Shown one piece after another: positions 43,335 through 63,999 of a stretch of 64,000 bases of DNA. The notes beneath the pieces are model-generated. The model had not been told where the DNA came from and did no database searches. It was given only the letters and a program-made list of their open reading frames with translations. Both the position numbers and the translations under genes were made by a program. Each line of letters opens with the position of its first letter. Positions within the stretch are counted from its first letter, which is position 1. Source of the DNA: Streptomyces sp. enrichment culture (GTDB taxonomy: Bacteria; Actinomycetota; Actinomycetes; Streptomycetales; Streptomycetaceae); assembly GCF_964273255.1 (NCBI RefSeq), contig NZ_OZ186835.1, positions 1,555,413-1,619,412 on the forward strand, in the 5' to 3' direction.

Positions 43335-43542
43335 AGAGGGCCCAGCCCGGAACCGTTACGCCGGCGCCCACCCCTGCCCTGCCCTGCCGTGAGGCATGCT
43401 CCCCGGGCTGACCCACCGGGACACTCCTCACGCCACGCCCGCACGACCGCTACAACACCGGAAAGCCTCCCGCCCGCTGGTCCGGCTCCGGGGAATTCCA
43501 CGCAAGGTCGGTCGGGCCACCACTACCCGACCACGTCCCCGG

Positions 43543-44223: not shown

Positions 44224-44246
44224 TTAGCTCGCCTGCGCACTTGACC

Positions 44247-46592: not shown

Positions 46593-46608
46593 GTCGCTCC
46601 CCCGAGCC

Positions 46609-47022: not shown

Positions 47023-47465
47023 CACACCCCCGAAGTCCTCCAACCGGTCTCACGGACCGCTTCACGATACGCGGACGATCACCAGCCTGATCACCGGCCC
47101 TTGGCCCGCCCATCGACCGTGGACGGCAGCAACCGCGCCCGCGGGCCCGCTCAGGCACCGGCTCGACGGGACAGGTTCACTTTCACTCGGACGAGACCTG
47201 CCCGCACATGGTCCTTGACCCGGCACCGTCGAACCCACGGCGGCCGTCCATGGTCGTGAGCCATGGGATCACGGTCGGTTGCCGGCTGCAGGAGAACGCT
47301 TCGGAGTGGCCGAATACCGTTCCGGTATGCGAATGGTTGACCGACCGGGAGGGCTCGGGTGACGGTCTCGGCAGACCCTCCGGGCTTCCCAGCCGCGCAA
47401 GGCAGCAGCCGGCCGCGGCCCCGTCACAGGACGGAGTCCGCGGCCGGCCGGATCCCAGACGGAGG

Positions 47466-48203
47466 TCAGCCGCTGACCGTGATGTTCGAGTTGCCACTGC
47501 TCTGGTAGCCCTCGGTGGCCATGATCATGTAGTACCTGAACTGGCCCAGGTTCATGCCCGCGCGCGCCCAGGCGTCGAAGTGGTTCCCGGTGGTGATGGT
47601 GCCGGAGCCGATCACCTTCGACTGCCGGACGCTCCAGTACTGGTCGAAGGTGCGCGTGCCCTCCACGGAGGGGGCGTTGTACCGCGTCGTCTTGTAGATG
47701 TCGTACGTGCCGCCGTCGCTGTACACGGTGCCGCGGTGCTCGCCGGTGGGCCGGTAGCTGCCCCAGTTGTCGACGATGTAGTACTCGACCAGCGGGTTCG
47801 ACGTCCAGCCGTAGAGGCAGCCGTAGCCGTTGCCCGACGGGTTGAAGTAGCCGCTGTACCGGACCGTCCTGCGCCCGCCGTTGGCCCAGCCCTTGCCGGC
47901 GACGAAGTTGCCGCAGTTGGTCCACTGGGTGCTGTAACTCCCGCCGCCGTTCAGTGTCATGGAGACGCGGCCGCCCCCGTCCGTCCAGAACGAGTAGTAC
48001 ATGCCGTCGTAGCCGGTCTGGTTGGTGGTGATGGTGGTGGCGGCGTGGGCCGTGCCGGGCAGCAGCAGTCCGGACGCGGTCGCGAGCGCGACGGTGCCGG
48101 CGCCGCCGAGGAAGCCTCGTCGGCTCAAGCCGCTGAAGGGGGCGGGGTGCTGCGGGTTCTGGTCCTGCTGGTTCCGTTCTTGCCGCTTACCGTCCTGCTG
48201 CAT
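47466..48203 (-). CDS. xlnC: Tat-secreted GH11 endo-1,4-beta-xylanase C
   Basis: SRRGFLG Tat motif, [12 protein letters not shown] and [10 protein letters not shown] catalytic motifs; closely resembles S. lividans XlnC as recalled. Confidence 0.95.
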
Positions 48204-48394
48204 GCGTCCTCCCGATGAAGGCTGGTGGGGGGCGGGCGGCTTCTGCCACCCGTGGCCTTGCATGGAACACGGCGGGGGACATCCGTCGTCGTGCCACGAT
48301 GACGTGACCGGCCGCCGCACCGGTCACACGGCGCGAGGAGTACGACGGTTGCCCGTCGTTCGGTGGCCACAGTTGTCGCAGAGCGCCATGAGCC

Positions 48395-48558
48395 TGTCAA
48401 TGGTTTCGGTATTCTTTCGGAAACAGCAGCACTGCAGAATGGACCCTGACGGCGGCGTTTTACCAGGCCACGCCCATACTCGAGCAGATCGACTCGGCGG
48501 TCGCCTGCCACCGAGACGACTCCAACCGCAAGCACGGCTATCTACTACGAAACTTTCG
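48395..48558 (-). promoter_or_regulatory. xlnC upstream region: -35 TTGACA (48395-48400) and CGAA-N-TTCG operator CGAAACTTTCG (48548-48558)
   Basis: Motifs read directly; CGAA-Nx-TTCG is the reported BxlR (LacI) xylan-regulon motif. Confidence 0.55.
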
Positions 48559-48718
48559 ATCCTGGATATGGAACAGCGGTCCCCCTCCGAGGAGGCCGGC
48601 AGCACGCACGGTGCACTGCCGGTCGTCCTCGCGGAGCGATCAGGGAGGGTGCCGGCGACGGACCGACACTCAGGCTTCTCGAACGCTCGCCTCGTGCCAC
48701 GAACGTGCCGACCTCACG

Positions 48719-48910
48719 ACCGGCCCGGCGCCGCAGTTCCGTCCTGGTCGAGGCCAGCAGGGCGTGCCACGAGGCGGCGAACTTCTCGACACCCTCGTCC
48801 TCCAGGCGCCGGACGACGACGTCGTACGAGATGCCGAGCTTGCCGATGACCGTGTCCCTGCAGGCCGGGTCCTTCACCCCGGTCGAGGCCCAGAGCGGCC
48901 GCTGCTTCAC
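48719..48910 (-). pseudogene. tal: Internally deleted 3' remnant of actinobacterial transaldolase
   Basis: QRPLWASTGVKDP joined directly to LGISYDVVVRRLEDEGVEKFAASW; no 5' part present. Confidence 0.8.
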
Positions 48911-49104
48911 GATTGTGTCGGGCCCTGCCGCAACCTGCTGAATCGCTGAGCCACCAGATCAACGCACTCATGCAGACTCGGCATCGGCAGACCGACACGG
49001 TCGCGCATCACAGCAATGGCCTGCACGTTTCGCCCGGCCGAGACGAGGCTGTCCACCTCCGACCGCGCCTCGATCGAGAGCCGGTCCCACAGCGCGTCCT
49101 CCAT
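48907..49104 (-). CDS. Small hypothetical protein (65 aa), possible orphan immunity gene
   Basis: MEDALWDRLSIEARSEVDSLVSAGRNVQAIAVMRDRVG...LHECVDLVAQR; protein-like composition, family not recognised. Confidence 0.45.
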   Translation of the reverse strand: MEDALWDRLSIEARSEVDSLVSAGRNVQAIAVMRDRVGLPMPSLHECVDLVAQRFSRLRQGPTQS

Positions 49105-49225
49105 ACCCGCATTCAACCCCACGGGCCGCACCCGAGAGCTTCCGCGGTCCCCACGAACCGCCGCCTCACCGAACAACTCCGCCGGGACGAAACGCGCGTT
49201 CAGGAGCCGGGCGGAGCGACGGTGG

Positions 49226-49345
49226 GCCCTCACCGGGGACGACGAGGTTTCTGACGTGGTCCGTGACGGAGTCGATGCTCCGTTCGTCGATCGTGCCGAC
49301 GTCGCCCGTGCGCAGCCAGCCGTCCGCGTCGGTCACGGGCACCAG
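49226..49345 (-). pseudogene. Acyl-CoA synthetase fragment
   Basis: DADGWLRTGDVGTID adenylate-forming motif with no flanking gene. Confidence 0.55.
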
Positions 49346-49425
49346 GCAGCCGTCGACCCGCAGGCGGCCGGGGACGACCACCGGGCCGCACCCGCGACCT
49401 CACCGCGCCCCGGGCCCACGCCATC

Positions 49426-49704
49426 GTGCCGGTCTGCCTCACCCGGCAGATCCTTGTCCTGGCCGACCGCGCCTACCAGGGTGCCGGCGCCACCTTCCGC
49501 ACCGCCTCCTGCCACCACAGCCAACAGCCCGAGCATTACCAGCAGTGCAACCGCGACCACGCACGACTGAGAGCCCCCGGCGAACGCCCCTTCGCCCGAC
49601 TCAAGTCCTGGCACCTCATGCGCAGAGCACGCTGTTCGAGCCGCCGTATAAGCCGCACCGTCCAAACCATTTACGTACTACTGAGCTGCACCTATTCAGG
49701 ATGA
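49426..49704 (+). mobile_element. IS5-family transposase C-terminal remnant
   Basis: LVLADRAYQGAG, NRDHARLRAPGERPFARLKSW resemble DDE_Tnp_4-type transposases; N-terminus missing. Confidence 0.8.
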
Positions 49705-49776
49705 GAAACTTGGCGTCCCTCGGCGGCGTGGCGGTGTTCCCTGGGCCGGACGGCGCCGGTTGCCCGTCCTGGGCCT

Positions 49777-50097
49777 TCAACCTTCCAGCAGATCGCTGAC
49801 ATACTCGCGGAGCTGAGGAGGAAGGTTGCCGAGGACGATCTCACGCAGAGGGGAAAGGTGGTCACGGTCGACGTGACCGGTGGATGCGAGTTCGATGAGG
49901 GCGTGCAACTCGGCTTCCCGGGCGGAGTTCTCCCTTTCGAAGGCAGCGGTTGCCGCCAGCAGTGTCGCCAGCGCCGACGCCTGGGCAGACGTCAATGAAC
50001 CCACGTGGTCGGACACTTCGTCGGCCGCGCGTTCTCGTGCCTGTGCATCGACTTCCAGGATCATTCGCGCCATGCTGATGAAGTCGTGAGACTTCAA
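49777..50097 (-). CDS. Candidate immunity protein for Ntox30-like toxin (copy 1)
   Basis: Intact ORF (TTG 50097 or ATG 50073) directly after a toxin-tip remnant; near-identical to 60039-60359. Confidence 0.7.
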   Translation of the reverse strand: MKSHDFISMARMILEVDAQARERAADEVSDHVGSLTSAQASALATLLAATAAFERENSAREAELHALIELASTGHVDRDHLSPLREIVLGNLPPQLREYVSDLLEG

Positions 50098-50114
50098 TGT
50101 GCAACACCCGTTCG

Positions 50115-50292
50115 TCACTGGTACGGAAGTGGAAACTGAGTCGCCAGGAGATGTGTGTGGCATGGGCCACATCCGGATCGTAGTGCGGGCTGTTCGGGTT
50201 GTGGACCTGCTGGTGTACAAGTTCCGCACCGCATCCTGGTATTTCCCGCCGATCGATATGCGGTAGATATCTCCGTTTGCCGCGTTGGGAGC
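50115..50292 (-). pseudogene. C-terminal remnant of Ntox30-like toxin (copy 1), frameshifted
   Basis: NAANGDIYRISIGGKYQD...HATHI(S)W; ancestral end QFPLPYQ* (TGA 50115-50117) still readable. Confidence 0.7.
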
Positions 50293-50360
50293 CGGCGGCA
50301 CCGCCACGTGGGTCGAGCGCGGGCCCCGCGCCGGTTCCCGGGGCGGGGCCTCGGAAGCGG

Positions 50361-50404
50361 GCTCCTCTCCAGCGATCCGCGTCCTCATTCGCCTGGAGAG
50401 GAGC
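50361..50404. terminator. Hairpin GCTCCTCTCCAG/CTGGAGAGGAGC
   Basis: 12-bp stem just downstream of the 50410 gene. Confidence 0.55.
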
Positions 50405-50409
50405 TGGGC

Positions 50410-50889
50410 TCAGAATTCGTGCAACACCACCCAGTATTCGTCATCTTCGACCGAGGCGGCGCACAGGCGGCGACCATCCCGCGAGACGGCTACGAACTCG
50501 GGTGCACCCGTTACTCCGGCGACACGGGACGGAAGGTGCGTGCCGACCGGATCCTTTACGCGTACCCAGCCGGCCCTGCTCCCGCCCGGCACCGGCGGCA
50601 GGATGAGGAAATCGCCGCTCTCGCCGTACAGACGGAACTGTGAGGCACGGTGGTGCCACACCTCGTCCAATGCGTCGGCGGCTCGAGGACTGGAGGCGGG
50701 GATCGTCACGGCCGGCTCGACCTCGAATCCGGTGACCGCGTAAAGGGCGAAGTCCACAGGTGGACCGCCCCGTTCCGCCCTTCCTGTGACGTCCAGGCCA
50801 CAGCGCTCAAGGACGTCCAGCCCATCAGGCGCCTGGGTGGTCGCAGGGGGCGGGGCGATTGCTCTGGGCCGGTATTCGTCCTCTTTCAC
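50410..50889 (-). CDS. Hypothetical protein, candidate orphan immunity (159 aa)
   Basis: GTG overlaps the upstream stop (GTGA); C-terminal PEFVAVSRDG..LCAASVEDDEYWVV; position in the Rhs downstream array. Confidence 0.6.
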   Translation of the reverse strand: MKEDEYRPRAIAPPPATTQAPDGLDVLERCGLDVTGRAERGGPPVDFALYAVTGFEVEPAVTIPASSPRAADALDEVWHHRASQFRLYGESGDFLILPPVPGGSRAGWVRVKDPVGTHLPSRVAGVTGAPEFVAVSRDGRRLCAASVEDDEYWVVLHEF

Positions 50890-51650
50890 CAGTTCCCGTA
50901 GTCCTCCACGTAGGTGGCGATGAGCTCCAGCAGGGCGTCGGCCCGGTGCCGGTCCTCGCGTTGCTCTCGCAGGGCCCTGTCGGTGGCCTGGAGACGGGCC
51001 AGGGCGGCCGGTTCGCCGTCGACCAGGCCGTCGACCACCGGCACCACGGTGACCAGATCCAGGCATTCGGTGAGGAGGTGGCGGGTGGCCGGGACGGGGG
51101 GAGCGGGGTCGGGGGCGGTGAAGCCGGCGGTCAGGTAGCGCGCGGGGTCCGTGATGCTCCAGCCGACGACAGTGCCGTGCTGGATGAGGAGTGCCACGTC
51201 TGGGGCGATGCCGATGCGGGCCTCCAGAGGCTCGTCCAGGATGTCGAGGTCGCGCAGGCAGGTCAGCACGGCGTCACCGGGAGCGCGGCACAGCACCGTG
51301 CACATCTCGTGCCGGAAGTCCTTGACCTCGTCCGCCTGCAGACCGCCCGGGCGTACTTCGGGCATGTCGGGAACGCGGGCCGAGTCCTCGGCCGAGGCGG
51401 CCTCTTCCGGGATGCGGAACTCGGCTCCGACCAGCTTCCGGTCGCCCGGGGAGAAGCGGAAGACGTCGGGGAGGTCCCACAGCACGTCATGGCTGCCGAA
51501 CGTGTCCGCGAAGAACCTCTCCCGTTCCACCCGGTCCGCATAGGGGGACACGATCAGGGACGTGCCGATGAGACGAGGGACGAGGTCCAGTGGCTCGTCC
51601 GTCACCGCCGCGGACCAGCCTCCGTCGAACTTCAGTTTCGTCGTCATCAC
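50886..51650 (-). CDS. Hypothetical protein, probable cognate immunity of the Rhs toxin (254 aa)
   Basis: Starts 5 nt after the reconstructed Rhs stop, with GAGG RBS. Confidence 0.65.
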   Translation of the reverse strand: MMTTKLKFDGGWSAAVTDEPLDLVPRLIGTSLIVSPYADRVERERFFADTFGSHDVLWDLPDVFRFSPGDRKLVGAEFRIPEEAASAEDSARVPDMPEVRPGGLQADEVKDFRHEMCTVLCRAPGDAVLTCLRDLDILDEPLEARIGIAPDVALLIQHGTVVGWSITDPARYLTAGFTAPDPAPPVPATRHLLTECLDLVTVVPVVDGLVDGEPAALARLQATDRALREQREDRHRADALLELIATYVEDYGNW

Positions 51651-51654
51651 TGCC

Positions 51655-54600
51655 TCATCTGATTTGTACCGCCGGAGGCTGGAAGCGGCCGTCCTTGGCG
51701 GGAATCCTGCCGTTCACGATGTCCTCGTGCGTGACCGGGGCGCCGGGGTCAGTGGGTTTTCCGCCGAGCGCCGTGGCCCCGGAGTCACCCTTGATGCCTG
51801 AGGGACCGTACGCCGTGATGGCCTGGCCCTGGGTCTGACCCGGGCCGTCGATCACCACGATGTCGTTGCCCTGCCGGAATGTGAACGTCCCGGCCGTGCC
51901 CGTCGAGTGGTACACGGCGTCCGGGTTCTTGAGGATTTCGACGACCCGTTCGTCGCTGAAGTCATGCCGGGTGTCTCCGTGGTAGTCGTGGCGTTTCCTG
52001 AACCCGCCGTCCTGTGCTCTCTCCACGTGTCGTCCACCACCTTGTTGATCCGCTTCTGGGCCCGTTCCTCTTTCGTGTACTTGGGCATGAGGCCCAGCGG
52101 GTCGCACCCGCTGTACGGGTTGTCCACGTACGCGACTGGGTTCGGGGCGGGAGCCAGGCCCAGCGGGTCGGGGGAGGTGTAGCGGCCGGTCTCGGGGTCG
52201 TAGTGGCGGAAGTAGTTGTAGTGGAGGCCGGTCTCGGGGTCGTAGTACTGGCCGGGGAAGCGGAGCGGGGTGTAGGCGCTGCTGTCACGGGCCCAGGCCG
52301 TGGTGCCCCAGAGCGTGCTCCGGGTGCGCCAGGCGATGTCGCCCGTCTCGTCGATGAGCTCGGTCGGCGTGCCGATCAGGTCGGTGGCGATGGCGAAGAA
52401 CCGCCGGTCGATCTCCTCCTGGCGGTCGTCGGCCGTGAGGATGCGCTCGGTCTGGGCGAGGGGCACGTCGGCGCGATGTTCCCAGGTGAGCGCGACCGTG
52501 TGCGGTACGTCCGGCTGGTGGCTGGTCTGTTCGCACAGGGTGAGGCCGTCCCAGGTGAACCGGGTCTCCTCGGCCACACTGGTGCCGTCGGCCGCCAGGC
52601 GCTGTTTCGCGATGCGGCGGCCCAGCGGGTCGTAGCGGTAGGTCCAGCGGGTGCCGTCGGGGGTGGTGACGGAGGTGAGGCGGTTCTCCGTGTCCCACGT
52701 GTAGCGCCATGTGTCGGGCTTGCGGGAGAGGCGGGTCTTCTGCCGCAGGGTGACCCGGCCGAGGGCGTCGTACTCGAACCGGACGTCTCCGGCACGGGTG
52801 ATACGGGTGCCGCTGTAGGTCCGCTCCCCGGTCGCCTCACCGCCCGGATGCCGGTCCGGCCAGGTCGCCGAGGTCTGGTTGCCGGCGTCGTCGTAGGCGT
52901 ACCGCTCCGTCCAGCCCCGGGCGTGGACGGCGGTGACCCGGCCCACCCGGTCGAGGTCGAAGGAGCGGCTGCCCGACAGACGGTCCGTGACGGAGGTGGG
53001 ATGTCCGTCGGCGCGGTAGGAGTAGGCACGGTGGTTGACGACGCGAGCTCCGGCGGTGATGTGCTGCGCGGCGAGCCGTCCGGCCTCGTCCCAGGCCGAG
53101 GTCATGGTGATCGTGTCGCCGAAGACGCGGGTGAGTTCCCTGCCGGCGGCGTCATGGGTGAATGCGATGCGGTGCCCGCCGCTGGTCAGGCGGTGGGGCT
53201 GTCCGTCGGCGCCGTAGGTGTAGGAAGTGACGTGACCGGTGGGGGTGGTGCGGCGCGTGCGGCGGCCCAGGGCGTCGTAGGAGTAGGAGACGGGGCGGCC
53301 GTCCACCAGTTCGGTCTTGACCTTCCCCCGGCGGTCGTACTGGTAGCGGAGTTCGCTGTCCGGACCGGCCGCCTCCAGCAGGCGGCCCGCCCTGTCGTAG
53401 GCGTAGGTCGTCACCCGGCCGTCGATGTCCTTGCGGACCACCTGGCCGAGCTGGTCACGCTCGAAGGAGATGGTCCCGCCGAGCGCGTCGGTGCGGGCGG
53501 CGAGCCGGCCCGCGGCGTCCACCCGGTAGGTGAGTACGCGGTCGTCGAAGTCGGTCTCGGAGACGATGTCGCCGGCGGCGTTGTACTCGTAGGTCCAGGT
53601 CAATCCCTGCGGGTTGATGACGCGGGTGAGACGCAGTTCGGCATCGTGCTCGAACGCGTAGCGCGTGCCGTCGGGTCGGCTGCGACCGACCAGGAGGTCG
53701 AAGTGGGTGTACTCGAAGCGGGAGACACCACCGGACACATCCGTGTGGGTGAGCAGGTTGCCCTCGCCGTCGTAGGTCCACGATTCCGTGGCTCCATCGG
53801 GGCCGATGCGTCGGGCGAGTTGCCCGTCGGCGTGCCATTCCAGGCGGGTCACGCCGCCCACCGGGTCCGTGATGCGGACCGGCCTGCCGAGGGCGTCCCG
53901 TCGCGTGCGCGTGCCGGCGCCGCCGGGACCGGTCACCTCCACGGGCAGCCCCGCCGCGTCGCACACCACGCGCGTCACGGCTCCGAGTGCGTCCGTGACC
54001 GATGTGAGGCGACCGGCGTGGTCGTAGGTGTAGCGGGTGGTGGCACCGGCCTGGTCGGTGACCGCCGTGCGGTTTCCCCGCTCGTCGAACTCATGGACCA
54101 TACGGGCGCCGTCCGGCCCGACGACCTCCACCGGCAGACCGAACCGGCCGCGAACGGTCCGCAGTTCGCTTCCGTCGGGGCGGGTGGCGGAGACGACCCG
54201 GCCGTCCTCGTCGTAGAAGAACGCGGTGGTGTGGCCCAGCGGGTCGGTGCGGGTGAGGACGTTGCCGCGGGTGTCGTAGGTGAAACGGGTGGTGTGGCCG
54301 AGCGGGTCGGTGGTGGCGATCACCCGGCAGCGGTGGTCGATCAGGTGGCGGGTCGTGTGGCCGGCGGCGGTGGTGAGGGTGGTGGTGCGGTGGCCGGTGT
54401 CCGGGTCGGGTTCGGTGTAGGCCAGGGTGATCTGGACGTGGCCCGCTTCGCCGCCCTCCGCCACGACACGGTCGCGGTCGTCGTAGACGTAGTCGTAGCG
54501 GCTGCCGTTGGAGTCGATCCAGGCGGTGACGCGGCGGCGGTCGTCGTAGACGAACGTGGTGGTCGCGCCGGAAGGTTTGGTGACGGTGGTGAGGTTGCCG

Positions 54601-56426
54601 TCCTCGTCGTAGCCGTAGGACATCAGCGGCAGATCGGCACCGTCCTCGCCCCCGCCGGCCAGGTGCAGTGCGGTGATCAGGCCGTCGGCGGAGGCGAGGT
54701 CGATCCGGCGGCCGGCCGAGTGGACCAGGGCCGTGGGCAGGCCGTCTCCGGCGCGGTCGACGGTGACGGTATGGCCGTTGCGTTCGGTGAAGCAGGCCAG
54801 CCAGGCGGTTCCGTCGCCACCGGGTTCGGCGTCGGGCGGGGCGGTGAAGCGACGGGTCAGGCCGGTGTCGGGGTCGGTGAGCGTGTAGTCGCCGTCCGCG
54901 TCCCGGGCCAGCAGGGTGCGGGCGGGGCCGGACTCCGGGCGGGTGGCGGTGCCGGGGGCGGGGTGCGGATAGGTGATCAGCAGCCCGTCGGCGGTGACGT
55001 GGACGATGCCGACCGGGTCGACCTCCAGGCGCTCGTCGACGGTGGAGGTCCAGGACGGCCCCAGGAAACGGCCGGCCGTGCAGCCCGACTCGGTGCGGCG
55101 GGTGAACACCAGCGGCAGGATGCCGGGGATCTCCACGTCCGTCTGCGGCAGGAACATACGGCCCGAGGCGAGGTCGACCGGGTCGGTGCCGTCGGTCGTG
55201 CGGTCGCCGTCCGGCCGGTTGTGGGTGCCGTCGGGCGCGTCGTCGACCAGCCTGCGCACCCGGGCCGCGTCGGCCGCGTCGGCGGCGACGCGCACCCCCT
55301 TGACGGCGGCGCCACCCCCGCCCGTGGCCACGGTCAGCGCCACGTCCGGCAGCAGACGGCCGAAACCCTCGTAGGGGTCCTTCGTGAAGTCGCTGACCAT
55401 CTGCTTGCCGGTGCCGACCGGGTCGTTGGCGGCCAGCACCAGCCCCGCGGCCAGGCTGTTGAGGCTGGTGGCGTATTCGGCGGGGTGGGTCAGGTTGTAC
55501 GGGTCGAGGGGGTTGATGCCCCGCACGAAGTTGAGCAGCCCGGCGGTGCCCTTGATGACGCCGCCGCCGACATGGTCCCCCATGATCTGGAACTCCTGGA
55601 GGCCGTCGCCGAGTTGCTCCGTGTACGACGGCTTCTCCGGCGCCATGTCCCGGGCCGCGCGCACCGCTGTGCGGGCCGTCTCGGCCGCGGTGTTGCGCTG
55701 CTTGCGGGCCTCGGCCAGGATCTCCTGCGCCTCCTTCATCAGCTTCTTGCCCGGGTCGTCGAACGTCGGAGCCGGGCAGGGCGGAAGCGTGGAGGGGTCC
55801 CGCTTGTCGGCGGGCAGGGCGTTGTAGCGGTCGACGGCCTTGTTGTACGTGTCGACCTTTTTGCGGTGGGCGTCGGCGGCGTCCTCGGACGCCTTCACCC
55901 CGTCCTTCCACTTCTCGATCGCCGTCTGCGCCTGCCCCTGCGCCCAGGTCACGGTGGAGGCGAACGACTCCAGCGCGGCGGCGGCCTTCTCGCAGGCGTC
56001 GGCGCCCTCGAACCACTTCGGCGGCTGGGTGCTCACCGCCTTGCGCAGCGCCTCGGCCGTCTCCCCCTTCAGACGGGAGGGGTCCAGCCCCTTCAGGCCA
56101 CCGCCCGCGTCGTCGAACGCCTTCTGGAAGCCGCGCAGTTTCTCCGCGGTGGAGCGGATCTTGTCCGGGCTTCCGTGGACCAGTTTCGTCTTGTCCTCGG
56201 TGTCCCCGAGGTCCATCTCGTCGACCTCGGCGCCCATCCGGTTCGCGACCGAACGGGACTGCTCGCGCACCCAGTCCGCGCCGGACTCCCAGCCGACGTC
56301 GTCCAGCCGGTCCGCGGTCCAGTTGCCCGCGCCCTCGACCCTGTCACCGAGCCACTCGACACCCTCCTCGACCGCCTCCTCAACCGAGTCAGGGGTGATG
56401 TCCTTGATGAAGTCGCCGATGCCCAC
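51655..56426 (-). pseudogene. T7SS-type Rhs/YD-repeat polymorphic toxin with 1-nt frameshift near 52025
   Basis: Helical T7SS-type N-terminus, DPVDLASG, YD repeats, PLRFPGQYYDPETGLHYNYFRHYDPETGRYTSPDPLG core, DPLGL cleavage motif. The tip continues in the frame ending at 51655; 4772 nt + 1 = 1591 codons. Confidence 0.88.
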
Positions 56427-56428
56427 GC

Positions 56429-57094
56429 TCAGTTGCCCCCGCCGTCACCCGGGCCGCCCTGCTGCTGCGCCTGCTGGGCGCGTTCCTCGGGCGACGGACC
56501 GAACGTCTCGTCCAACGCCCGGTTCCACTCGTTGTCGTCGATGCCCAGCCGCTCGTTGAGCCACTCCGCCTGCTGTCCGCCCCGCCCCTCCGTCAGCAGC
56601 GAACGGCCGGTGTCCTTCCAGGTCTGCTCGATCTCCTCACCGGCCCGCTCGAACGACTCCCGGCTCCAGTCCGGGTCGAAGGCGTCCGGCGTGAACACCT
56701 CACCCCAGCCCTGCTGGGCGATCTCCTCCTCGGAGGCGTGCGGGTTGCCGCCCATCAGGGCGTTGACCCCCACCTTCAGCGAGCCGGCCACGTACTGGTC
56801 GTGCTCCCACAAGGTGCCCGCCGCGAGGCCGAGCCGGTTCGCGATCTGGCTGGCGTCGTTGACCAGGGCGCGCACACCCCACTCCCAGCGTTCGCAGAAG
56901 TCCTCGAAGTCCACGGACAGGCCGTGGTGCCCGGCCTCCATCCCCGTCATCGACAGCCCGGAAAAGCCCTTGCCCATGATCGAGCCGGTGGCACCGCCCA
57001 ACTCCCCCAGCCCGTCGATGGTCGCGCCCACGCCCTTGGTGAACTTCGCCACCGAGGCGGCATCGAGATTCAGATCCACATCGTCAGCGGCCAC
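56429..57094 (-). CDS. WXG100-like partner of the Rhs protein (221 aa)
   Basis: VAADDVDLNL...FEDFCERWEWGVRALV (WxxG-like) helical hairpin; between SseB and Rhs. Confidence 0.7.
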   Translation of the reverse strand: MAADDVDLNLDAASVAKFTKGVGATIDGLGELGGATGSIMGKGFSGLSMTGMEAGHHGLSVDFEDFCERWEWGVRALVNDASQIANRLGLAAGTLWEHDQYVAGSLKVGVNALMGGNPHASEEEIAQQGWGEVFTPDAFDPDWSRESFERAGEEIEQTWKDTGRSLLTEGRGGQQAEWLNERLGIDDNEWNRALDETFGPSPEERAQQAQQQGGPGDGGGN

Positions 57095-57542
57095 GCCCGT
57101 TCCCCTCCCCGTCCGAGCCGTCGGCCCCGGCCTCGACGGCGGCCCCGGCGGCCCCGGCGTCGACGGCGGCCCCGTCCGGGACGATGCCCGCGACCGGCGG
57201 GAAGAACATCGACCCGTCCTCGGTCGCGATGTCCACCGCCAGCCCGGCGGGCTCCCCCAGCCCCGGCACGATCTCGTCCACGATCCGGGCCCCCAGCAGC
57301 GCCGCATAATCCAACGGCCGTTCCGCCATCCCGCGTTGCTCCGCGAACCGGGCCAGCGCCGTCTCGTCCGTGAAGGCACACACCCACCGCACCCCGCCCG
57401 AGTGCGCGCTCCACAGCCGCCCGTCCACCGACGGCACCAGCAGTACCGACCGGCGCATCTCCCCCACCAGCGCACGAGGATCACCAAGCCCCGCCCTCTG
57501 CTCGGCTATTCGCTCGGCCAACACCGTCCTGGGCTGCTCCAC
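57084..57542 (-). CDS. SseB-family protein
   Basis: ALVGEMRRSVLLVP...GVRWVCAFTDETALARF...GLAVDIA...MFFPP; typical first gene of Streptomyces Rhs operons. Confidence 0.75.
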   Translation of the reverse strand: MEQPRTVLAERIAEQRAGLGDPRALVGEMRRSVLLVPSVDGRLWSAHSGGVRWVCAFTDETALARFAEQRGMAERPLDYAALLGARIVDEIVPGLGEPAGLAVDIATEDGSMFFPPVAGIVPDGAAVDAGAAGAAVEAGADGSDGEGNGRGR

Positions 57543-58337
57543 GACCCCTCCCTCGTCCTGGTGTCACGGGTGACTGATGGCACCGTAGATCACGACGCGC
57601 GCGAAGAGGGCTGTGGTTCTCGTGAAACTCGACCGGGCCCCCATCAGGCTCCGTTGATCTGGACGCCGAGGTTCACGGGATCATCTGAACCGCACCGACG
57701 GCGACGCGCCCCTGCGACAGGAACGGCGTCAATCGAGCGTCAGGTTCCCGCGGCCGGCCCCGTCGGTATCGCCTCCCCCAGATCCCCAGAGACGCATCGG
57801 ACTTCCGACACATACGGAACCGCAGGTCATCGGCCCCTTCGGAAGAACGGCGGGGCGCTTCTCCAACGAGAGCATGGATGCCCTCCATCCCGACGACACG
57901 ACCGTCCTGCCGACCGCATCAAACGACTGATCCCCTACACCACGTCAAGGGACATGACCTCTCCGAAGCGCGCCGGCCGAACCGGCTGCACAGCGGTACC
58001 CCACTGGGTTGCTTCCCGCGTCGTGGCGCGGAGGGTCCAGCGTTGCGCGTTCCGGCGCACGGCCCCAGACCGATCTCCGTAGAGGCGCCAGTCCACGAGA
58101 CGCCCCGCCGAGGCGAGTTGAACCCTCGGGACGGCGGATACGCCATCCCCGACCTGCGGATTCCGACGTGCGACGGAAGGTCGAACACTTCCTCGCTCCC
58201 TCGTCGACGTCGACACATGGGCGGCACGTGAAACCGCGTCATCCTTCCGCCGCGGCATCGACAAGGACGGGCCGGTTACCGACCTGACCAGCCGGGCGTT
58301 CAGCGTCGGCTCCCGGTTGCCGCCGGAGTCCAGATCT

Positions 58338-58425
58338 GGGACCGGCCAGTGTGCCGGTGGAAGAACCTGCTGAAGTGGGTGGGCTGGGGAAGTCGAGCCG
58401 GTCGGCGATACGGACGACGAGTTCG
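58338..58425 (-). pseudogene. AraC-family HTH C-terminal remnant (frameshifted)
   Basis: VRIADRLDFPS/THFSRFFHRHTGRS across a 1-nt shift matches the AraC second HTH signature. Confidence 0.6.
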
Positions 58426-58508
58426 GCCGCAGCGTCTCGGCCACCCTCTTCACCGCCCGCCCCGCCCCTGACAGCCGCCCATGTCTGCGCACCACCCCAC
58501 CTGAAAGT

Positions 58509-58865
58509 CCGTCAGAACGAGCGTCATTCCAGCGCCAGGACTTCCAGGACGCCCCGTCCGCAGACCAGGCAACCATCCGCCACCGCACCGGAAAAGCCCA
58601 GGCCGGAGCCCATAGGGCCACGCCATCACGCCTCGACCTGTTTCCATCCGGGAAACACGTCGAGCACAACGGGCCGCGCCTGAGAAACCCAGGAAAACCG
58701 CAGGTCAGAACCCCTTTGCGGTAGGCTCCAGAATCGCCACGCACTCCACATGGTGCGTCATCGGAAAGATGTCGGACTGAGCAAGGCACGGAAAAGCCCA
58801 GGTCAGGACCAGTTTCTCGGCTTGCTGCCCCGCGTACGGGCGCCCGGAGCGTCAAACGAGCGTCA
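58509..58865. mobile_element. attP-like element A: GCGTCA arm repeats - rlmD 3' core (58705-58773) - GCGTCA arm repeats
   Basis: Minus-strand core translates DIFPMTHHVECVAILEPTAKGF*; arms CCGTCA-N6-GCGTCA (58509-26) and GCGTCA-N5-GCGTCA (58849-65). Confidence 0.65.
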
Positions 58866-59166
58866 CGGTCCGGGTCATCATGTCGACCGCATCACATGTG
58901 GCCTCATCCCCTGGCACCGGACGTACCGGCTCGGCACCGGTCGGCAGGGCGCGGAGCGGGCGGCGGCGCGACGGTCATCGCGGTCGACAGGAGGCACTCG
59001 CTGCCGACGAGCGGGCTTCGGTTTCCCGAACCCCTGCATCGGGGGCCGACAGGCCCCTTCCTGCCGGCCGGGACCCGTGACAACGGGCCTCGTGGACGGT
59101 CCGTCGGGACCGTATCGTTTCGGCGGGCAGGTCAGGTGTTGCTCCGGTCCGTGCCCGGAAGGCCGT

Positions 59167-59972
59167 CTACGGACGGCTCCCGTCAGTCGTGCAGCGACGG
59201 AACGCCTCCCAGGTCGCGCGCACGGCGGTTCGGAGTCCTGCGTCGTCGAGATCACCGGGTTCCGCGAGGTCGGGGTCGACCGAGTACTGCTCAAGGATCA
59301 TGAACACTTCGTCCAGGAGATCACCGAGCGCGCCTCGGACCCGCTCCCCGTACGTCTGGGAGGCCCGCCGGCCTCCCACCAGCCGTGGGCGAACTCCGGT
59401 GCGCCGCACGTTCCGGCCTCGGTGAACGCCTCCAGTAGTGCCAGTTGTTGTGCCGTGGCGCTGACCGGGTCGACATCGCCGAGCCTGGACCACGCGCGAT
59501 CACCGGGCGGATGGGAGGCAGCCACAGGTGCGAGCGAGGGGTGACGTTCCAGGAGCGCGCGTGCGTAACGGCCGAAGCGTGCGCGTGCCGTGTCCGTGCC
59601 CTCGCTGACGGCCGAGGCCATGAAAGCGGTGGTCCCCGCGATCAGCGCGTAGCCTTCCTCAGGGAAGAGGACGGCTCCCTGCGCGTCGGGCGTGCGCAGC
59701 TGGACGGGTGGGCGCAAGCCCGTCAAGTCCGCGTCTGCGGGAACCCGGGACGGCGCCCCGGGCACGTCGGCGAGACTCGTCGCAAGGAGGTGCGGGGCCC
59801 CCACGGCACGACAGCCGGCCTCGATCCTGCGGGCCAACGCTGCGTCGAGGCGCGCTCCCACGGGCATCGGGGCCACCGTCCTCTCCCGCAGCCACGACGA
59901 CGTGAAGGTGCCGTCCGGACCGAGCACCCCGCTCTGGCTCCCCGATGACTCCCCGCCTTCTGGACCGGTCAC
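59167..59972 (-). pseudogene. Immunity-like gene with C-terminal colicin D immunity-like domain, 1-nt frameshift near 59370
   Basis: EFAHGWWEA/RRASQ..GERVRGALGDLLDEVFMILEQYSVDPDLAEPGDLDDAGLR; 806 nt + 1 = 269 codons. Confidence 0.6.
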
Positions 59973-60038
59973 CGCAAGAACCCGTTGTCGATGAGCGGAG
60001 TTCCGGGACCGGACGGCGCCGGCTGCCGTCCTGAGCCT

Positions 60039-60359
60039 TCATCCTTCCAGCAGATCGCTGACATAGTCGCGGAGCTGTGGAGGAAGGTCGCCGAGGACGA
60101 TCTCACGCAGAGAGGACAGGTGGTCAAGGTCGACATAGCCGGTGGATGCGAGTTCGATGAGGGCGTGCAACTCGGCTTCCCGGGCGGAGTTCTCCTTCTC
60201 CGAGGCAGCAGTTGCCGCCAGCAGTGTCGCCAGAGCCGATGCCTGGGCAGACGTATATGACCCCACGTGGTCGGACACTTCGTCGGCCGCCCGTTCTCGT
60301 GCCCGCGCATCGACTTCCAAAATCATTCGCGCCATGCTGATGAAATCGTGAGACTTCAA
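60039..60359 (-). CDS. Candidate immunity protein for Ntox30-like toxin (copy 2)
   Basis: LKSHDFISMARMILEVDARARERAADEVSDHVG...SDLLEG; now in frame with the upstream toxin remnant. Confidence 0.7.
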   Translation of the reverse strand: MKSHDFISMARMILEVDARARERAADEVSDHVGSYTSAQASALATLLAATAASEKENSAREAELHALIELASTGYVDLDHLSSLREIVLGDLPPQLRDYVSDLLEG

Positions 60360-60376
60360 AATGAAACATCCGTTCG

Positions 60377-60833
60377 CCACTCGTACGGAAGTGGACTGGG
60401 CCGGCCAGGGGATGTGTGTGGCATGGGCCGCATCCGAGTTGCAGTGCGGGCTGTTCGGGTTGTGGACCTGCCGGTGATACAAGTTCCCCGCCTCGTCCTG
60501 GTATCTTCCGCCGATCGATATGCGGTAGATATCTCTGTTTGCCGCGTTGGCGCCCGCGGGAGCAGTTCCGTCCTTGTCGTGCACCCGTAGGCGGACCTTG
60601 TTACCCGTCTCGGGGTCTTCCCATTTGCATTCCACCCCCTTCTGTGCACCGCCATTGGGGTCCGGCTCGAGTGTCCGCATCTCGGCATCGTCGGGAACGA
60701 TGCCGAGCGGGTTGTGACCGCGCACGTCCCAGCCACCCCCCTCAATGCGGGAGGGATAGGGGGACAGGCCTAGCGGGTCGGCCCACAGATGTGGGTTGAC
60801 CACATATGCCGTCGGATTGGGAGCGGCTTCCAA
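60377..60833 (-). pseudogene. Orphan Rhs C-terminal module with Ntox30-like RNase toxin
   Basis: Short core stub APNPTAYVVNPHLWADPLGL, then LRVH (RxH) and HATHIP (THIP) motifs; no upstream Rhs body. Confidence 0.78.
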
Positions 60834-60964
60834 GCCACGCCTACCGGAGACCTGTCGCCGTATAGCTCAAGTCCATAGAGCAGACCTAACGCGCTACTCG
60901 ACGGGCTGAGCCCGAAAAGTCGATTGGCCCGCGCCATCCGGTCCTAGCACGACCACCTCACACT

Positions 60965-61315
60965 CCGTCAGGAACAGCGTCGAACGAGCGTCAAGACATG
61001 CCTTGAACCCGTCCCTGACGGAGTTGAGCAGAGCGTTCTGGACTCACGCTCCCGTTGTGAAACCGCAGGTGAACCACGCGGCGACTACTCCACGCGGTGA
61101 ACTTCGGAAAACAGGTCGAGCACCGTCGAGCACCCCTGAAGAACCCGATAAAACCGCAGGTCAGAGCCCCTTCTGCGCAGGCTCAAGAATTGCCACGCAC
61201 TCCACGTGCGACGTCATCGGAAACATGCCACATGAAGCAAGGCCGGGAGAGAAGCAGGTCAGAGGGTGCTTTTCTCCGGGCGGGCTGTCAGCACCTGAGC
61301 GTCAAACGAGCGTCA
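60965..61315. mobile_element. attP-like element B: arm repeats - rlmD 3' core (61161-61229) - arm repeats
   Basis: Core translates GMFPMTSHVECVAILEPAQKGL*; arms CCGTCA-N6-GCGTCG-N5-GCGTCA (60965-93) and GCGTCA-N5-GCGTCA (61299-315). Confidence 0.65.
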
Positions 61316-61742
61316 CAAACAGAGAGCGACCGACCCGCTCGACGGGCTTCCAAGGCCGACCGGGTGACGGCACGCGATGGCGTCGGGCATCGGCACGCGC
61401 CCAGATCACGGCCGACGGTCAGGCGTCGGTCATCATCTGCGCCTCTCCCCCACGGCTGGCGAAGGTCAGCCAGGGCCTGGGACACCCACTTCAAGAAGTC
61501 TTCTGCGAGCGGGACCGTGTCCTGCGAATGTCCGAAGCGACCATTCGCCCTGCACGACGGCGACAGTGTGTACGACAAGCGCCCGTCGCACGGTCTGCCT
61601 GCGGTCTCATGCAGGCCGCTCCGTTCCCGGCAGGTAGGCGATGACGATCCACCAGGCGACGCGCAGGTGCACGGTCTCTGCGTTCACTGAGGTGGGTCCC
61701 GGATGGCGGGGTCCGGGACCCGGTGGTGCCTCTACCTCTTGT

Positions 61743-62057
61743 TCATCTATTGGTCGGGAGCCCGGCTGCGGATACATGCCGGGTCGAAACCCGGGGCGGT
61801 GTCACGAGGACATGCTTGCCCGATGGGCGACGATCATGGTGGCTCCAGGTGACCCAGCCCCGCTGCGCGGCGACCACGCCTGCGGCGAATCGATTCTGTA
61901 CCTCGAGTATTTCCATGATCCGGGCCACCCGACGGCGCACCGTGCGCACGCTGACCTTCAGATGCCGGGCTATCGGCTCGTCGCACGGGTACGTGGCGAG
62001 TAGGGAAAGCAGCCGAAGATCGTCGGCGGAAAGGGCGCAGTCCTGTTCGGCGGTCAT
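61743..62057 (-). CDS. Stand-alone LuxR-type HTH protein
   Basis: LSADDLRLLSLLA...DEPIARHLKVSVRTVRRRVARIMEILEVQNRFAAGVVAAQRGW. Confidence 0.75.
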   Translation of the reverse strand: MTAEQDCALSADDLRLLSLLATYPCDEPIARHLKVSVRTVRRRVARIMEILEVQNRFAAGVVAAQRGWVTWSHHDRRPSGKHVLVTPPRVSTRHVSAAGLPTNR

Positions 62058-62202
62058 TGATCCCCCGTGATAGCGAGACGGATTCAGCGGGGTGGCGGTT
62101 GCCCACCCTTGGTCGACTGGATAAATCGGTCGCCTACAACGTCAATGTGAGCATAATAGCCCGAATCCGCTTCCTCATAGAAGCTTTTTGGACATCTGAT
62201 CA

Positions 62203-63999
62203 TCACGGTGCCAGTGCGTTGTTCACGATTTCCGACGTCTCGGCCGACAGTCCTTGGGCCTCCCGCAGCGACCCCAGCGTGCGCAGGACCAGCTCCCGCC
62301 TCGCGGGGTCCAGCACCCGCCAGCCGTCGAAGCAGCCGGCCAGCCGCGCCGCCACCTGCGGGTTGAGCGCGTCGACGCGGCGGATCTGCTCGGCGGCGAA
62401 GGCGTAGCCCGAGCCGTCGGCGGCGTGGAAGTGCGCCGGGTTGTCGAAGCAGTACGCGATCACCAGCGCACCCACCCGGTTCGGGTTGGCCTCGGAGTAG
62501 GCGGGGTGGTGGATCAGGCGCCGGACCCGGGCCGGGGCGTCCGGGCGGCGGCTGCGGGCGTGCAGGGAGAACCACTTGTCCAGCACCAGCGGATGATCCC
62601 GCCAGCGCTCCCCGAACTCTGCCAGTGCCTCCTCCCCGTCGGTTCGGTCGGCCAGCGCGGTGAGCGCGGCGAGCCGGTCGGTCATGTTGTCGGCCATCGC
62701 GTACTGCCGGTGCAGCAGCGAGGCGACCTCCGGGTCCTCCAGTTCGGCCAGGTAACCCAGGCAGGTGTTCCGCAGCGCGCGGCGCCCCGCGTCGGCCGCC
62801 GCGAAAACGTACGGGCGGCCGTCGTCCAGGCGCCGGTGACAGGCGAGGAAACGTTCCCGAAGGGTGTGCGCCAACTCCTGCCTGGTGCGGTCGAGTACAG
62901 CGGTCAGCCGGACCGGGTCCACCTCGTCGAGCAGGCCGAACAGCGTGCCGAAGCAGGGCAGTTCCAGCATGAGCGCGGCCAGGGCCGGGTCGGTGCCGTC
63001 CTCCGTGAGGAGTCCGCCGAGGGCCTCGACCAGTGCCTGGGGGAGCGGTGGGTGCGGGGCGTCCGCCGCGCCGTCCGCCCTGGGCGCGTCCCCGGCGCGG
63101 TAGCGCTCCAGGAGCAGGTCGACGAAGAAGCCGTGGAGGGACTCCCAGCGCACGAAGGGGTCGTCGTCGCGGGCGGCCAGCAGCAGACGCTCCTCGGCGG
63201 TAAGGGGCAGCCGGAGCCGTACCGGCGCGGAGAAGCCGCGCAGCAGGGAGGGGACCGGCCGCTCGGGCACATCGGCGAAGGTGAGGGTGGTGACCGGTTC
63301 CCGCAGTTCGCAGACGCGCTCGGTTCCGGTGGGAGCCGTCTCGTCCGCGAGGCGCAGCGGCAGGTGGCGCCCGTCAGGGCCCAGCAGGGCGAGGGTCAGC
63401 GGGATGTGCAGCGGCTGCTTGTAGGGCTGCCTCGGGGTCGGAGGGCAGGACTGGCGGACGGTCAGGGTGCAGGTGCGGGCCTCGGCGTCGTGGTGGGCGG
63501 TGACGTCGAGGACGGGCGTGCCGGCCTGTTCGTACCAGCGCATGAACTGGGTCAGGTCGGTCCCGTTCGCCTCCCCGACGGCCTCGACGAACTGCTCGCA
63601 CGTGGCGGCCTGCCCGTCGTACCGGGTGACGTAGGCGCGCAGGCCGCGTCGGAAGCCCTCCTCCCCGAAGAGCGTGTGGAGCATCCGGATGACCTCGGAG
63701 CCCTTCTTGTACACGGTCCAGGTGTAGAAGTTGCTGATCTCGCGGTACTCGTCCGGGCGTACGGGGTGGGCCTGGGGCCCGGCGTCCTCGGCGAACTGGC
63801 GCTCCCGCAGCGCGCGCACGTCCCGCACGCGCTGCACGCCGGGGCTGCGCCGGTCGCCGGAGAAGCGCTCGTCGCGGTAGACGGCCAGGCCCTCCTTCAG
63901 GGAGAGCTGGAACATGTCGCGGCAGGTGACGCGGTTGCCGGTCCAGTTGTGGAAGTACTCGTGGGCGACGACGGTCTCGACGGCGGCGAAGTCGTCGTC
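62203..63999 (-). CDS. pepN: M1 aminopeptidase N, proteobacterial (E. coli PepN) type; 5' part outside the window
   Basis: HEYFHNWTGNRVTCRD.FQLSLKEG, NFYT.TVY.KG.EVIRM, FMRWYEQAGTP, PSLLRGFSAPV, VLDKWFSL, NPNRV.AL, NPQVAARL. Confidence 0.95.
   Translation of the reverse strand, partial: DDDFAAVETVVAHEYFHNWTGNRVTCRDMFQLSLKEGLAVYRDERFSGDRRSPGVQRVRDVRALRERQFAEDAGPQAHPVRPDEYREISNFYTWTVYKKGSEVIRMLHTLFGEEGFRRGLRAYVTRYDGQAATCEQFVEAVGEANGTDLTQFMRWYEQAGTPVLDVTAHHDAEARTCTLTVRQSCPPTPRQPYKQPLHIPLTLALLGPDGRHLPLRLADETAPTGTERVCELREPVTTLTFADVPERPVPSLLRGFSAPVRLRLPLTAEERLLLAARDDDPFVRWESLHGFFVDLLLERYRAGDAPRADGAADAPHPPLPQALVEALGGLLTEDGTDPALAALMLELPCFGTLFGLLDEVDPVRLTAVLDRTRQELAHTLRERFLACHRRLDDGRPYVFAAADAGRRALRNTCLGYLAELEDPEVASLLHRQYAMADNMTDRLAALTALADRTDGEEALAEFGERWRDHPLVLDKWFSLHARSRRPDAPARVRRLIHHPAYSEANPNRVGALVIAYCFDNPAHFHAADGSGYAFAAEQIRRVDALNPQVAARLAGCFDGWRVLDPARRELVLRTLGSLREAQGLSAETSEIVNNALAP

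Follow-up and report, generated by a model that had tools for sequence, protein, structure and literature searches.

Two direct repeats bound a toxin and immunity interval

The 64-kb Streptomyces-like stretch of DNA analysed here (the window; G+C 71.5%) contains an interval with three genes: an Rhs toxin tip that has an Ntox30 domain and a core stub of 23 codons, the tip's immunity gene, and one that is colicin-immunity-like. The interval lies between two direct repeats at 58618-58806 and 61074-61262, which were recovered by a repeat search, share 70% identity and are 2456 bp apart, start to start. A 31-nt core pattern occurs exactly twice in the window, whereas 0.00 occurrences were expected from 100 shuffles. 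These two results bear out the direct repeats and the spacing given in a preliminary description of the locus. On the minus strand the cores read DIFPMTHHVECVAILEPTAKGF-stop at 58705-58773 and MFPMTSHVECVAILEPAQKGL-stop at 61161-61226, and the sequences upstream of them are unrelated. An attachment-site (att) profile was built from 47 orphan copies of this core in other genomes, and the window was searched with it by nhmmer. The profile matched two units of about 350 nt, larger than first described and each placed around the end of a methyltransferase gene, and gave no further match in the window at E up to 10. The features of the interval and its borders are as follows.

58498-58870, plus strand: att unit A (left arm, core at about 58696-58772, right arm), nhmmer E 5e-68
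Motifs of unit A: GAACGAGCGTCA at 58515-58526; GGGAAACACGTCGAGC near 58652; AAAACCGCAGGTCAGA at 58693-58709; CCCAGGTCAGG near 58797; GAGCGTCAAACGAGCGTCAC at 58847-58866
58705-58773, minus strand: orphan 3' fragment of an rlmD/rumA-type 23S rRNA m5U methyltransferase gene, 22 codons and stop, no gene body upstream
59167-59972, minus strand: colicin-immunity-like gene with a frameshift near 59369, a pseudogene or a sequencing error
60039-60335, minus strand: probable Ntox30 immunity gene, 98 aa from MARMILEVD, looks intact
60336-60833, minus strand: orphan Rhs C-terminal tip; core stub with DPLGL at 60765-60833, Ntox30 at about 60402-60713
60836-61151, plus strand: extended left arm of unit B, its homology ending exactly at the Rhs stub
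60928-61356, plus strand: att unit B (core at about 61152-61228), nhmmer E 1.5e-64
Motifs of unit B: GAACGAGCGTCA at 60982-60993; CCGCAGGTGA near 61062; AAAACCGCAGGTCAGA at 61150-61165; GCAGGTCAGAGG near 61253; GAGCGTCAAACGAGCGTCAC at 61297-61316
61161-61226, minus strand: second orphan 3' methyltransferase fragment, 21 codons and stop (translation, tblastn)
57726-57828, plus strand: weak att left-arm remnant (nhmmer --max E 0.0012, profile positions 65-151)

Units A and B are 59% identical in their left arms, 85% in their cores and 62% in their right arms, and their longest shared word is 20 nt; on this comparison they are judged to be different subtypes and not a local duplication. The left arm and core of B (60836-61225) resemble by blastn the sequence directly 3' of the intact methyltransferase gene in L014 (Streptomyces albogriseolus, 95.5%) and L020 (94.5%), and they match L001 at 89% (L001, L002 ... 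L168 are labels of compared stretches from other genomes or plasmids). When the intact gene of L011 was searched against the window fragments by tblastn, 86% identity was obtained over 21 aa. The remnant at 57726-57828 and the att unit of plasmids L001 and L002 are equally far from the SseB-like gene, and a 31-nt repeat links 57712-57742 to 60963-60993 (84%).

A structured RNA or a tRNA at the repeats was ruled out: the window has no tRNA gene, and no Rfam family was found in 57000-62500. A promoter and terminator scan of 57500-62200 returned no promoter-like site and was uninformative. In public sequencing runs, where the region is present only as assembled contigs (69-79% of sampled words), one contig in 3 of 4 runs omits 71 nt of the right arm of A (58776-58846), either as an indel variant or because it represents a paralogous att copy.

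The repeats derive from a methyltransferase gene end

The core peptide corresponds to the motif at the C-terminus of m5U RNA methyltransferases of the TrmA/RumA type (weak PDB matches). A 22-base core pattern, run against a single genome for each species, yielded at least 119 stretches, 118 from Streptomyces and 1 from Streptacidiphilus. In about 69 of them the core is the end of an intact methyltransferase of 440-480 aa with conserved upstream synteny. This protein contains TRAM and tRNA_U5-meth_tr domains, scores 202.6 bits against TIGR00479 rumA (NCBIfam rumA/RlmD equivalog; cut-off 183.55) and ends ...AALARDLxYFRDGGYRVRTLRAFDLFPMTHHVECVAILEPAxKGx. The content 3' of the intact gene is hypervariable. 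In about 50 further stretches the core is an orphan that comprises only the last 17-22 codons and stops at the same point, as in the window, where no intact methyltransferase gene or gene body is present. The intact target gene has conserved neighbours, a 697-aa protein and 223-aa paralogues, neither of which matched in tyrosine-recombinase searches.

Att units and intact genes have a core of about 77 nt in common. Each unit consists of the last ~21 methyltransferase codons and ~25 nt past the stop, set between two arms that carry motifs at fixed distances (GAGCGTCA, CAGGTCAG and GGAAACAGGTCGA). CAGGTSA lies at -124/-113, -22 (over the stop codon) and +76 from the core, and ACGAGCGTCA at -206/-195 and +133. 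In the alignment of the 47 orphan copies the core is highly conserved and conservation elsewhere is limited to the motifs, a pattern that looks like protein-binding sites rather than uniform decay. Right-arm motifs were found beside orphan fragments only, left-arm motifs beside some orphan fragments and some 15-20 intact genes. This distribution corresponds to gene-proximal, distal and internal (tandem) junctions and thus matches what is expected for elements integrated at the gene end. The att-type nature of the cores, already proposed in the preliminary description, is upheld by the survey, in which at least 119 stretches show either intact rlmD-type gene ends or orphan fragments with arm motifs. 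By their architecture, the repeats are predicted att-type duplicates of a genus-wide integration hotspot at the rlmD/rumA-type 3' end. Literature searches gave no published account of this gene end as an integration target in Streptomyces.

The architecture resembles attP sites of the lambda/pSAM2 type, as found in the integrative and conjugative elements of actinomycetes (AICEs), in its long identity segment with a target-gene 3' end and in its arms with repeated motifs at fixed spacing; it differs from them in the lack of adjacent int/xis genes and in its protein-coding target. AICEs commonly integrate at gene 3' ends, mostly of tRNA genes, and pSLS is an AICE of an integrase subfamily that does not use tRNA genes (PMC3218068). 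Streptococcal integrative and mobilizable elements with serine recombinases use the same target gene family, rumA, but insert internally and disrupt the gene, whereas here the 3' end is duplicated and the gene remains intact (PMC5704250). A phage origin was dropped: copy A had no match in 50,697 phage records, and the core had none in IMG/VR.

The cargo is damaged

The open reading frame (ORF) 60039-60833 on the minus strand opens with the core stub MEAAPNPTAYVVNPHLWADPLGL, followed by Ntox30 (PF15532), which was matched over the full profile length at residues 41-144 (E 1.1e-30; 106.3 bits, cut-off 25). A PxxxxDPxGL-type stub precedes the tip and an immunity gene lies directly 3', as is characteristic of Rhs orphan modules. 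Full-length Ntox30-tipped Rhs proteins in L002 and L031 end ...HIPWP(S/A)Q(Y/F)PLPY-stop, with the immunity gene in the other frame. The window tip shifts into the immunity frame near its end and loses its last ~5 codons, so that the ORF is a frameshift fusion of toxin tip and immunity gene. A homologue of the immunity gene itself comes after the full-length Rhs with an Ntox30 tip on plasmids (L002 8461-8781), and another in L031.

The third gene was read as ORF 59298-59972, which goes on in another frame to 59167. Its read-through translation has 97 homologues of ~250-270 aa (~265 aa when intact), the best with 92% identity over the full length. Several full-length homologues (54-79% identity) are named colicin immunity domain protein and two carry PF09204, the Pfam Colicin_immun family, against which the read-through protein itself scores 17.2 bits (E 0.008), below the cut-off of 22. 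In one related public run, about half of the depth at this place carries an additional G after 59369. Exact-match look-ups with three window proteins gave no match. The preliminary inventory of a toxin tip and two immunity-type genes stands as to gene content; as assembled, two of the three predicted cargo genes, the tip and the colicin-immunity-like gene, are damaged by frameshift.

In related isolates and metagenomes, depth over 59093-59934 is 2-3 times that of the adjoining sequence, and the stretch is also present in a second version with a difference of ~5-10%, which indicates that the colicin-immunity-like gene is multi-copy in those genomes. In 4 of 4 public runs the spacer that separates the colicin-immunity-like and immunity genes has one C more, after 60025.

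A neighbouring Rhs module and its counterpart in TE5632

A complete-type Rhs module of the type VII secretion system (T7SS) lies left of unit A, followed by a second copy of the Ntox30 tip and immunity gene.

50886-57542, minus strand: complete-type T7SS Rhs module (Pfam T7SS_signal, DUF6531, RHS_repeat)
57084-57542: SseB-like gene of this module (weak match)
56429-57082: 217-aa gene of this module
51852-56426: Rhs gene of this module
51655-52107: toxin-domain frame of this module
50886-51650: immunity gene of this module
49777-50388, minus strand: second, more degraded Ntox30 tip and immunity copy, with 90-91% nucleotide identity to 60262-60550 (Pfam Ntox30 fragment)

The main Rhs ORF (51852-56426, minus strand) exits the toxin-domain frame soon after DPLGL, and the toxin domain continues in the overlapping ORF 51655-52107; the main Rhs appears to be frameshifted between core and tip. 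This toxin domain is homologous to the orphan tip of S. cellostaticus. The copy at 49777-50388 lacks the toxin N-terminus, has a frameshift in the toxin and sits downstream of the main Rhs, the classical orphan position. It is followed by a DDE transposase-like fragment (49426-49704).

Full operons in L166, L167 and L168 have the order SseB, 221-aa gene, Rhs, 253-aa immunity gene and colicin-immunity-like gene, with the last-named gene in last place. Because the window cargo has the same order from tip to immunity gene to colicin-immunity-like gene, it corresponds to the end of such an operon. The idea of a compact, purpose-built cassette therefore does not hold: the interval represents a whole Rhs operon's 3' end, the 5' part being gone, and two of its three genes are frameshifted.

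Streptomyces sp. TE5632 (L167) has a syntenic island of 88-94% identity, which includes the GH11 xylanase and a three-gene module also found in the window. It carries a single Rhs operon between two att units, one on the side of the colicin-immunity-like gene and one on the SseB-like side, and this att-bounded module is 94% identical to the module next to unit A. The variable number of modules anticipated in the preliminary description is thereby supported, since TE5632 has one Rhs module between two att units and the window has that module plus a remnant. Copy A tracks the SseB-side unit of TE5632 up to ~58.80 kb (84-98% identity) and, from ~58.85 kb, the unit on the other side and then the colicin-immunity-like gene (92-98%). 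By these matches copy A is a putative chimera, with the form that a junction between modules of a tandem array, or a circle junction, would take. A three-way alignment puts the switch outside the gene-identity segment, past the +76 motif and ahead of the right-arm repeat pair, and shows the core to be a mosaic. A switch in this position, together with a mosaic core, shows recombination within att units and leaves an integrase-type exchange unproven. An exchange inside the core is accordingly a weakened account of A, as the alignment places the switch in the proximal right arm.

That the tip is an ordinary Rhs orphan, displaced through Rhs-core homology and flanked by repeats incidentally, is very unlikely. 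It would account for a tip with a 23-codon core stub and its immunity gene behind it, and for the second copy at 49777-50388 in the classical position 3' of the main Rhs. The copy in the interval, however, lies upstream of the main Rhs operon, past unit A, and its stub meets the att arm exactly at 60836; S. cellostaticus has a different Rhs tip and immunity gene likewise between two att units. The stub also matches the end of the resident Rhs core at only ~67% identity, the longest word in common being 10 nt, and would be a poor substrate for homologous swap onto the resident Rhs, a use that had been suggested for it. Compared with known Rhs orphan modules, the window tip shares the C-terminal tip, the short stub with DPxGL, the cognate immunity gene and Ntox30, and differs in lying elsewhere than downstream of its rhs gene, in being enclosed by att units and in being followed by an operon-terminal colicin-immunity-like gene.

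Att-bounded modules in other genomes

Tandem arrays of the same kind were found elsewhere. The linear plasmid NZ_CP108566 has four direct att units that delimit three modules: a 19-kb module with CHAT and giant-protein genes, a 7.5-kb T7SS Rhs module with an Ntox30 tip and an 8.3-kb DUF6531 Rhs module. The first two of these modules also occur on NZ_CP120984. Of the at least 119 stretches, 16 have two att units within 8 kb of each other, one case (L010) being a 255-bp partial duplicate. The other 15 intervals contained the following.

L012, L052, L084, L105: ribbon-helix-helix (RHH) antitoxin and Fic/Doc toxin, 0.7-0.9 kb
L061: weak PIN match (E 0.0014, below cut-off) and an adjacent gene
L094: AbiEii toxin
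L089 (S. cellostaticus): Rhs tip and immunity gene, 1.3 kb
L006: FG-GAP protein
L096: DUF4383 membrane protein
L018, L033, L068, L074, L111, L112: hydrolases, transporters and regulators, 3.5-5.3 kb

Among the matches listed, 6 of the 9 intervals below 3 kb in other genomes hold toxin-antitoxin or toxin-immunity pairs, and four of these six hold the same RHH-Doc pair. An enrichment of toxin and immunity genes between cores, as postulated earlier, finds support in the small intervals; above ~3 kb the content is mostly ordinary accessory genes. Likewise, the 118 ORFs located up to 3.5 kb from orphan cores were assigned by Pfam most often to hydrolases, MFS transporters, TetR regulators and dehydrogenases. 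The predicted cargo is heterogeneous, with toxin-type pairs prominent among the smallest intervals.

The RHH-Doc pair adjoins the intact gene in some genomes and lies behind further modules in others, as predicted by successive gene-proximal insertion. It is located at 5079-5707 in L012, 420-1126 in L052, 1261-1653 in L084 and 6069-6772 in L105. A Doc-like gene (a cluster of 13) occurs ~890 nt from the core, beside either the intact methyltransferase gene or an orphan fragment. In S. cellostaticus the order is fragment, immunity gene and Rhs tip, fragment, 3 kb of other sequence and the intact methyltransferase gene; a second att unit, and after it the intact gene, come 4.7 kb away. A 1545-aa gene without Pfam match always abuts the att left arm (L014 1962-6599, L020, L045 and L001 18000-19721), and its DNA agrees at 94-96% between three species and a linear plasmid; such identity of the element end beside this gene implies recent horizontal transfer. 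In Streptomyces sp. NPDC001851 an orphan att core has a pPIWI_RE defence gene, related to prokaryotic Argonautes, directly to its right (L082 2549-5560).

Recombinase remnants and a trans-acting alternative

No tyrosine or serine recombinase signal was detected in the interval or anywhere in the window. Across ~160 att-bearing loci, recombinase traces were confined to remnants in L003, L010, L110 and L162: a box-II regular expression found the L003 remnant only, and a recombinase profile search added those in the other three. No recombinase was among the top Pfam families of the 118 ORFs near orphan cores. The notion that the cassette is shuffled by an integrase thus lacks its enzyme, both in the window and beside the great majority of the ~150 att copies covered. 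The L003 and L110 remnants belong to one family, which among 5.8 billion proteins is represented only by fragments of 55-125 aa in 31 protein clusters. Two of these fragments sit in clusters of three recombinases (L126 and L127), with no att unit nearby. With such remnants alone near ~160 loci and the site absent from phage records and IMG/VR, the att system may be extinct, rare or trans-acting.

Two candidate enzymes were set aside. The nearest full-length relative of the L003 remnant, on a Nonomuraea plasmid, adjoins an apparent tRNA-gene 3' end (read by eye) and not this att. When metagenomes were scanned for the right-arm repeat, 38 contigs were obtained, on one of which a full integrase lies 2.4 kb from an att unit and points away from it. 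The clusters of L126 (6416-10333) and L127 (8080-10339) each comprise three consecutive tyrosine-recombinase genes or fragments, possibly of the recombinase-in-trio type, and their third member is of the L003/L110 remnant family.

The public contigs end at the cores and at the colicin-immunity-like gene, which is multi-copy, and one runs from a copy-B-like core into an intact methyltransferase gene elsewhere in that genome. No contig has a 2456-bp skip or a circle joint, and contigs cannot show low-frequency events.

One could suppose an active integron-like system, in which the ~350-nt units are sites of a trans-acting recombinase encoded elsewhere that captures and shuffles small integrase-less cassettes, preferably toxin-antitoxin or toxin-immunity pairs, at the rlmD end and on linear plasmids, the 2.46-kb interval being one cassette able to form a circle. 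We regard this as unlikely. The conservation of the arm motifs across many species suggests that the sites are kept functional, and both arms are retained in both window copies, but the searches found no recombinase, and an empty-site junction is as absent from the contigs as a circle joint, though they could not have shown one. The six small toxin-type intervals (L012, L052, L084, L105, L094 and L089), to which the window would add one more, speak for selective capture; four of them, however, are the single RHH-Doc pair, probably inherited, and the 3.5-5.3 kb intervals and the flanks of orphan cores hold ordinary metabolic, regulator and transporter genes. Recent mobility is implied by the element end that is 94-96% identical across species and a plasmid, beside intact gene or fragments, and no visible module contains an integrase, as such a system would have it; the window interval itself is a truncated operon end with two damaged genes and no compact cassette.

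Toxin-antitoxin cassettes are frequent in chromosomal integrons. With integrons (IntI, attI, attC) the present arrays share small integrase-less units placed between repeated recombination-site sequences. They differ in having no intI-like gene, attI or common promoter beside the arrays, and in modules of up to 19 kb that include whole operons. The unit itself is also different: here it is attP-like, ~350 nt long, with a gene end and direct motifs, whereas attC is an imperfect palindrome hairpin of 60-140 nt. It is conceivable, although we hold the chance to be small, that the rlmD-derived units define a genus-wide Streptomyces gene-capture system with its recombinase in trans and cassettes without integrase. 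Under such a scheme, to which we give the same low probability, gene- to operon-sized modules would be inserted and excised at the methyltransferase end and at att units of linear plasmids, analogous to an integron but based on attP-like sites. Such modules would frequently be toxin-antitoxin pairs, Rhs tips with their immunity genes or entire T7SS Rhs operons.

Proposed origin of the interval by accretion and decay

We propose that the interval is probably the truncated, decayed 3' end of a second T7SS-Rhs module in an accretion-type tandem array of att-delimited modules. The repeats and the architecture common to their family are observed directly, as are the identities and lesions of the cargo genes and the architecture of modules in relatives; origin by site-specific integration, and the order of events, are what we infer. 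Modules carrying an att unit would have inserted at the methyltransferase 3' end or, where a plasmid or island already had an att unit, into that unit. Such insertions would have built arrays whose internal junctions have both arms. Either insertion or unequal exchange between att units would have placed the second Rhs module (colicin-immunity-like gene, Ntox30 immunity gene and Ntox30-tipped Rhs) beside the first, and this second module then would have lost the Rhs body and upstream genes and gained frameshifts. Decay is visible in the frameshifted tip and colicin-immunity-like gene and in the absence of the Rhs body. The outcome would be an integrase-less, att-flanked remnant of the cis-mobilizable-element (CIME) type, excisable only by a recombinase supplied in trans.

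Several observations weigh against this proposal. The methyltransferase gene is not in the window, so the array, which adjoins a helix-turn-helix (HTH) gene and pepN, is not at its native site. No cognate integrase was found; near att there are only the short tyrosine-recombinase remnants of the four loci named above, and the same remnant family also occurs away from att units. Compared with TE5632, copy A switches between its core and the right-arm repeats, and its core is a mosaic. With respect to the core, Rhs modules are found in either orientation (L031 and the third plasmid module), which simple site-specific integration does not predict. Finally, the tip stub abuts the att arm exactly at 60836, and in other subfamilies the shared arm ends merely 50-130 nt beyond this point, further in; the boundary may be a deletion breakpoint or a natural cargo boundary.

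Some of these observations would fit a shuffling of the arrays by general (RecA-type) or illegitimate recombination that acts on dispersed att-derived repeats, for instance following conjugal transfer. No dedicated recombinase would act today, and the att units, as fossils of an integrase system now extinct, would provide portable homology. The integrase relatives near att, being short dead fragments, the position of the switch outside the gene-identity segment with its mosaic core, and the two orientations of the modules all argue for such a process. We nevertheless consider it doubtful: A and B share exact words of at most 20 nt and have arms that are ~60% identical, a poor basis for homologous exchange, and motif-wise conservation of the arms across species is unexpected for neutral fossils.

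The proposed origin of the interval as a decayed second module in a tandem array has precedents. A CIME is an att-flanked, integrase-less element formed by accretion, for which a definition and a three-step model have been given (PMC5704250), and accretion and defective elements are documented in Streptomyces (PMC9513070, PMC4057263). Examples are the islands related to ICESt1/ICESt3 in Streptococcus thermophilus, AICE/DAICE at tRNA-Arg in Streptomyces and the modular PAISt. The interval resembles a CIME in its direct att repeats from the 3' end of a conserved gene, with both orphan fragments direct and with full arms, in containing no integration or transfer genes while carrying three toxin or immunity genes as cargo, and in its decay by deletion. 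It is also in tandem with modules of the same att, as the neighbour is att-bounded in TE5632 and on plasmids and a third remnant lies at 57726-57828. Unlike a CIME, the array does not abut an intact target gene, and the window has no methyltransferase gene body. The target here is an rlmD/rumA-type end, and no integrase-bearing partner is visible here or in most arrays. Many intervals of this family are gene-sized (0.7-5 kb), and arrays also occur on linear plasmids and, as in the window, off the target gene. The suggestion of an integrase-shuffled defence cassette is retained in part: the att nature and the cargo are confirmed, but an att-flanked integrase-less element in a tandem array is already known as a CIME formed by accretion (PMC5704250, PMC9513070).

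If this proposal is correct, the locus is one more decayed remnant of an att-flanked island, and the 2.46-kb interval retains little function beyond one intact immunity gene. Its wider meaning would lie in the rlmD/rumA-type 3' end as a genus-wide Streptomyces integration hotspot with a recognisable ~350-nt architecture. T7SS Rhs operons, defence-like genes and toxin-antitoxin pairs lie between such sites on chromosomes and linear plasmids, and the sites offer a handle for variable toxin and defence loci. The site architecture also makes it testable whether a recombinase still moves integrase-less modules. An active, trans-mobilised cassette system, if true, would be considerably more interesting than a remnant.

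The surrounding region

A stretch of ~19 kb (43400-62200) has a G+C content of 0.58-0.69, compared with 0.72, and is flanked by a thiamine pyrophosphate (TPP)-enzyme gene and pepN. The GH11 xylanase, Rhs loci and att units all lie within this stretch, which looks like a single composite island off the rlmD locus. The three-gene module within it (43543-47043, minus strand; 226, 781 and 144 aa, no Pfam family) is syntenic at L167 12613-16144 and also lies directly beside orphan att cores in L110 and L057.

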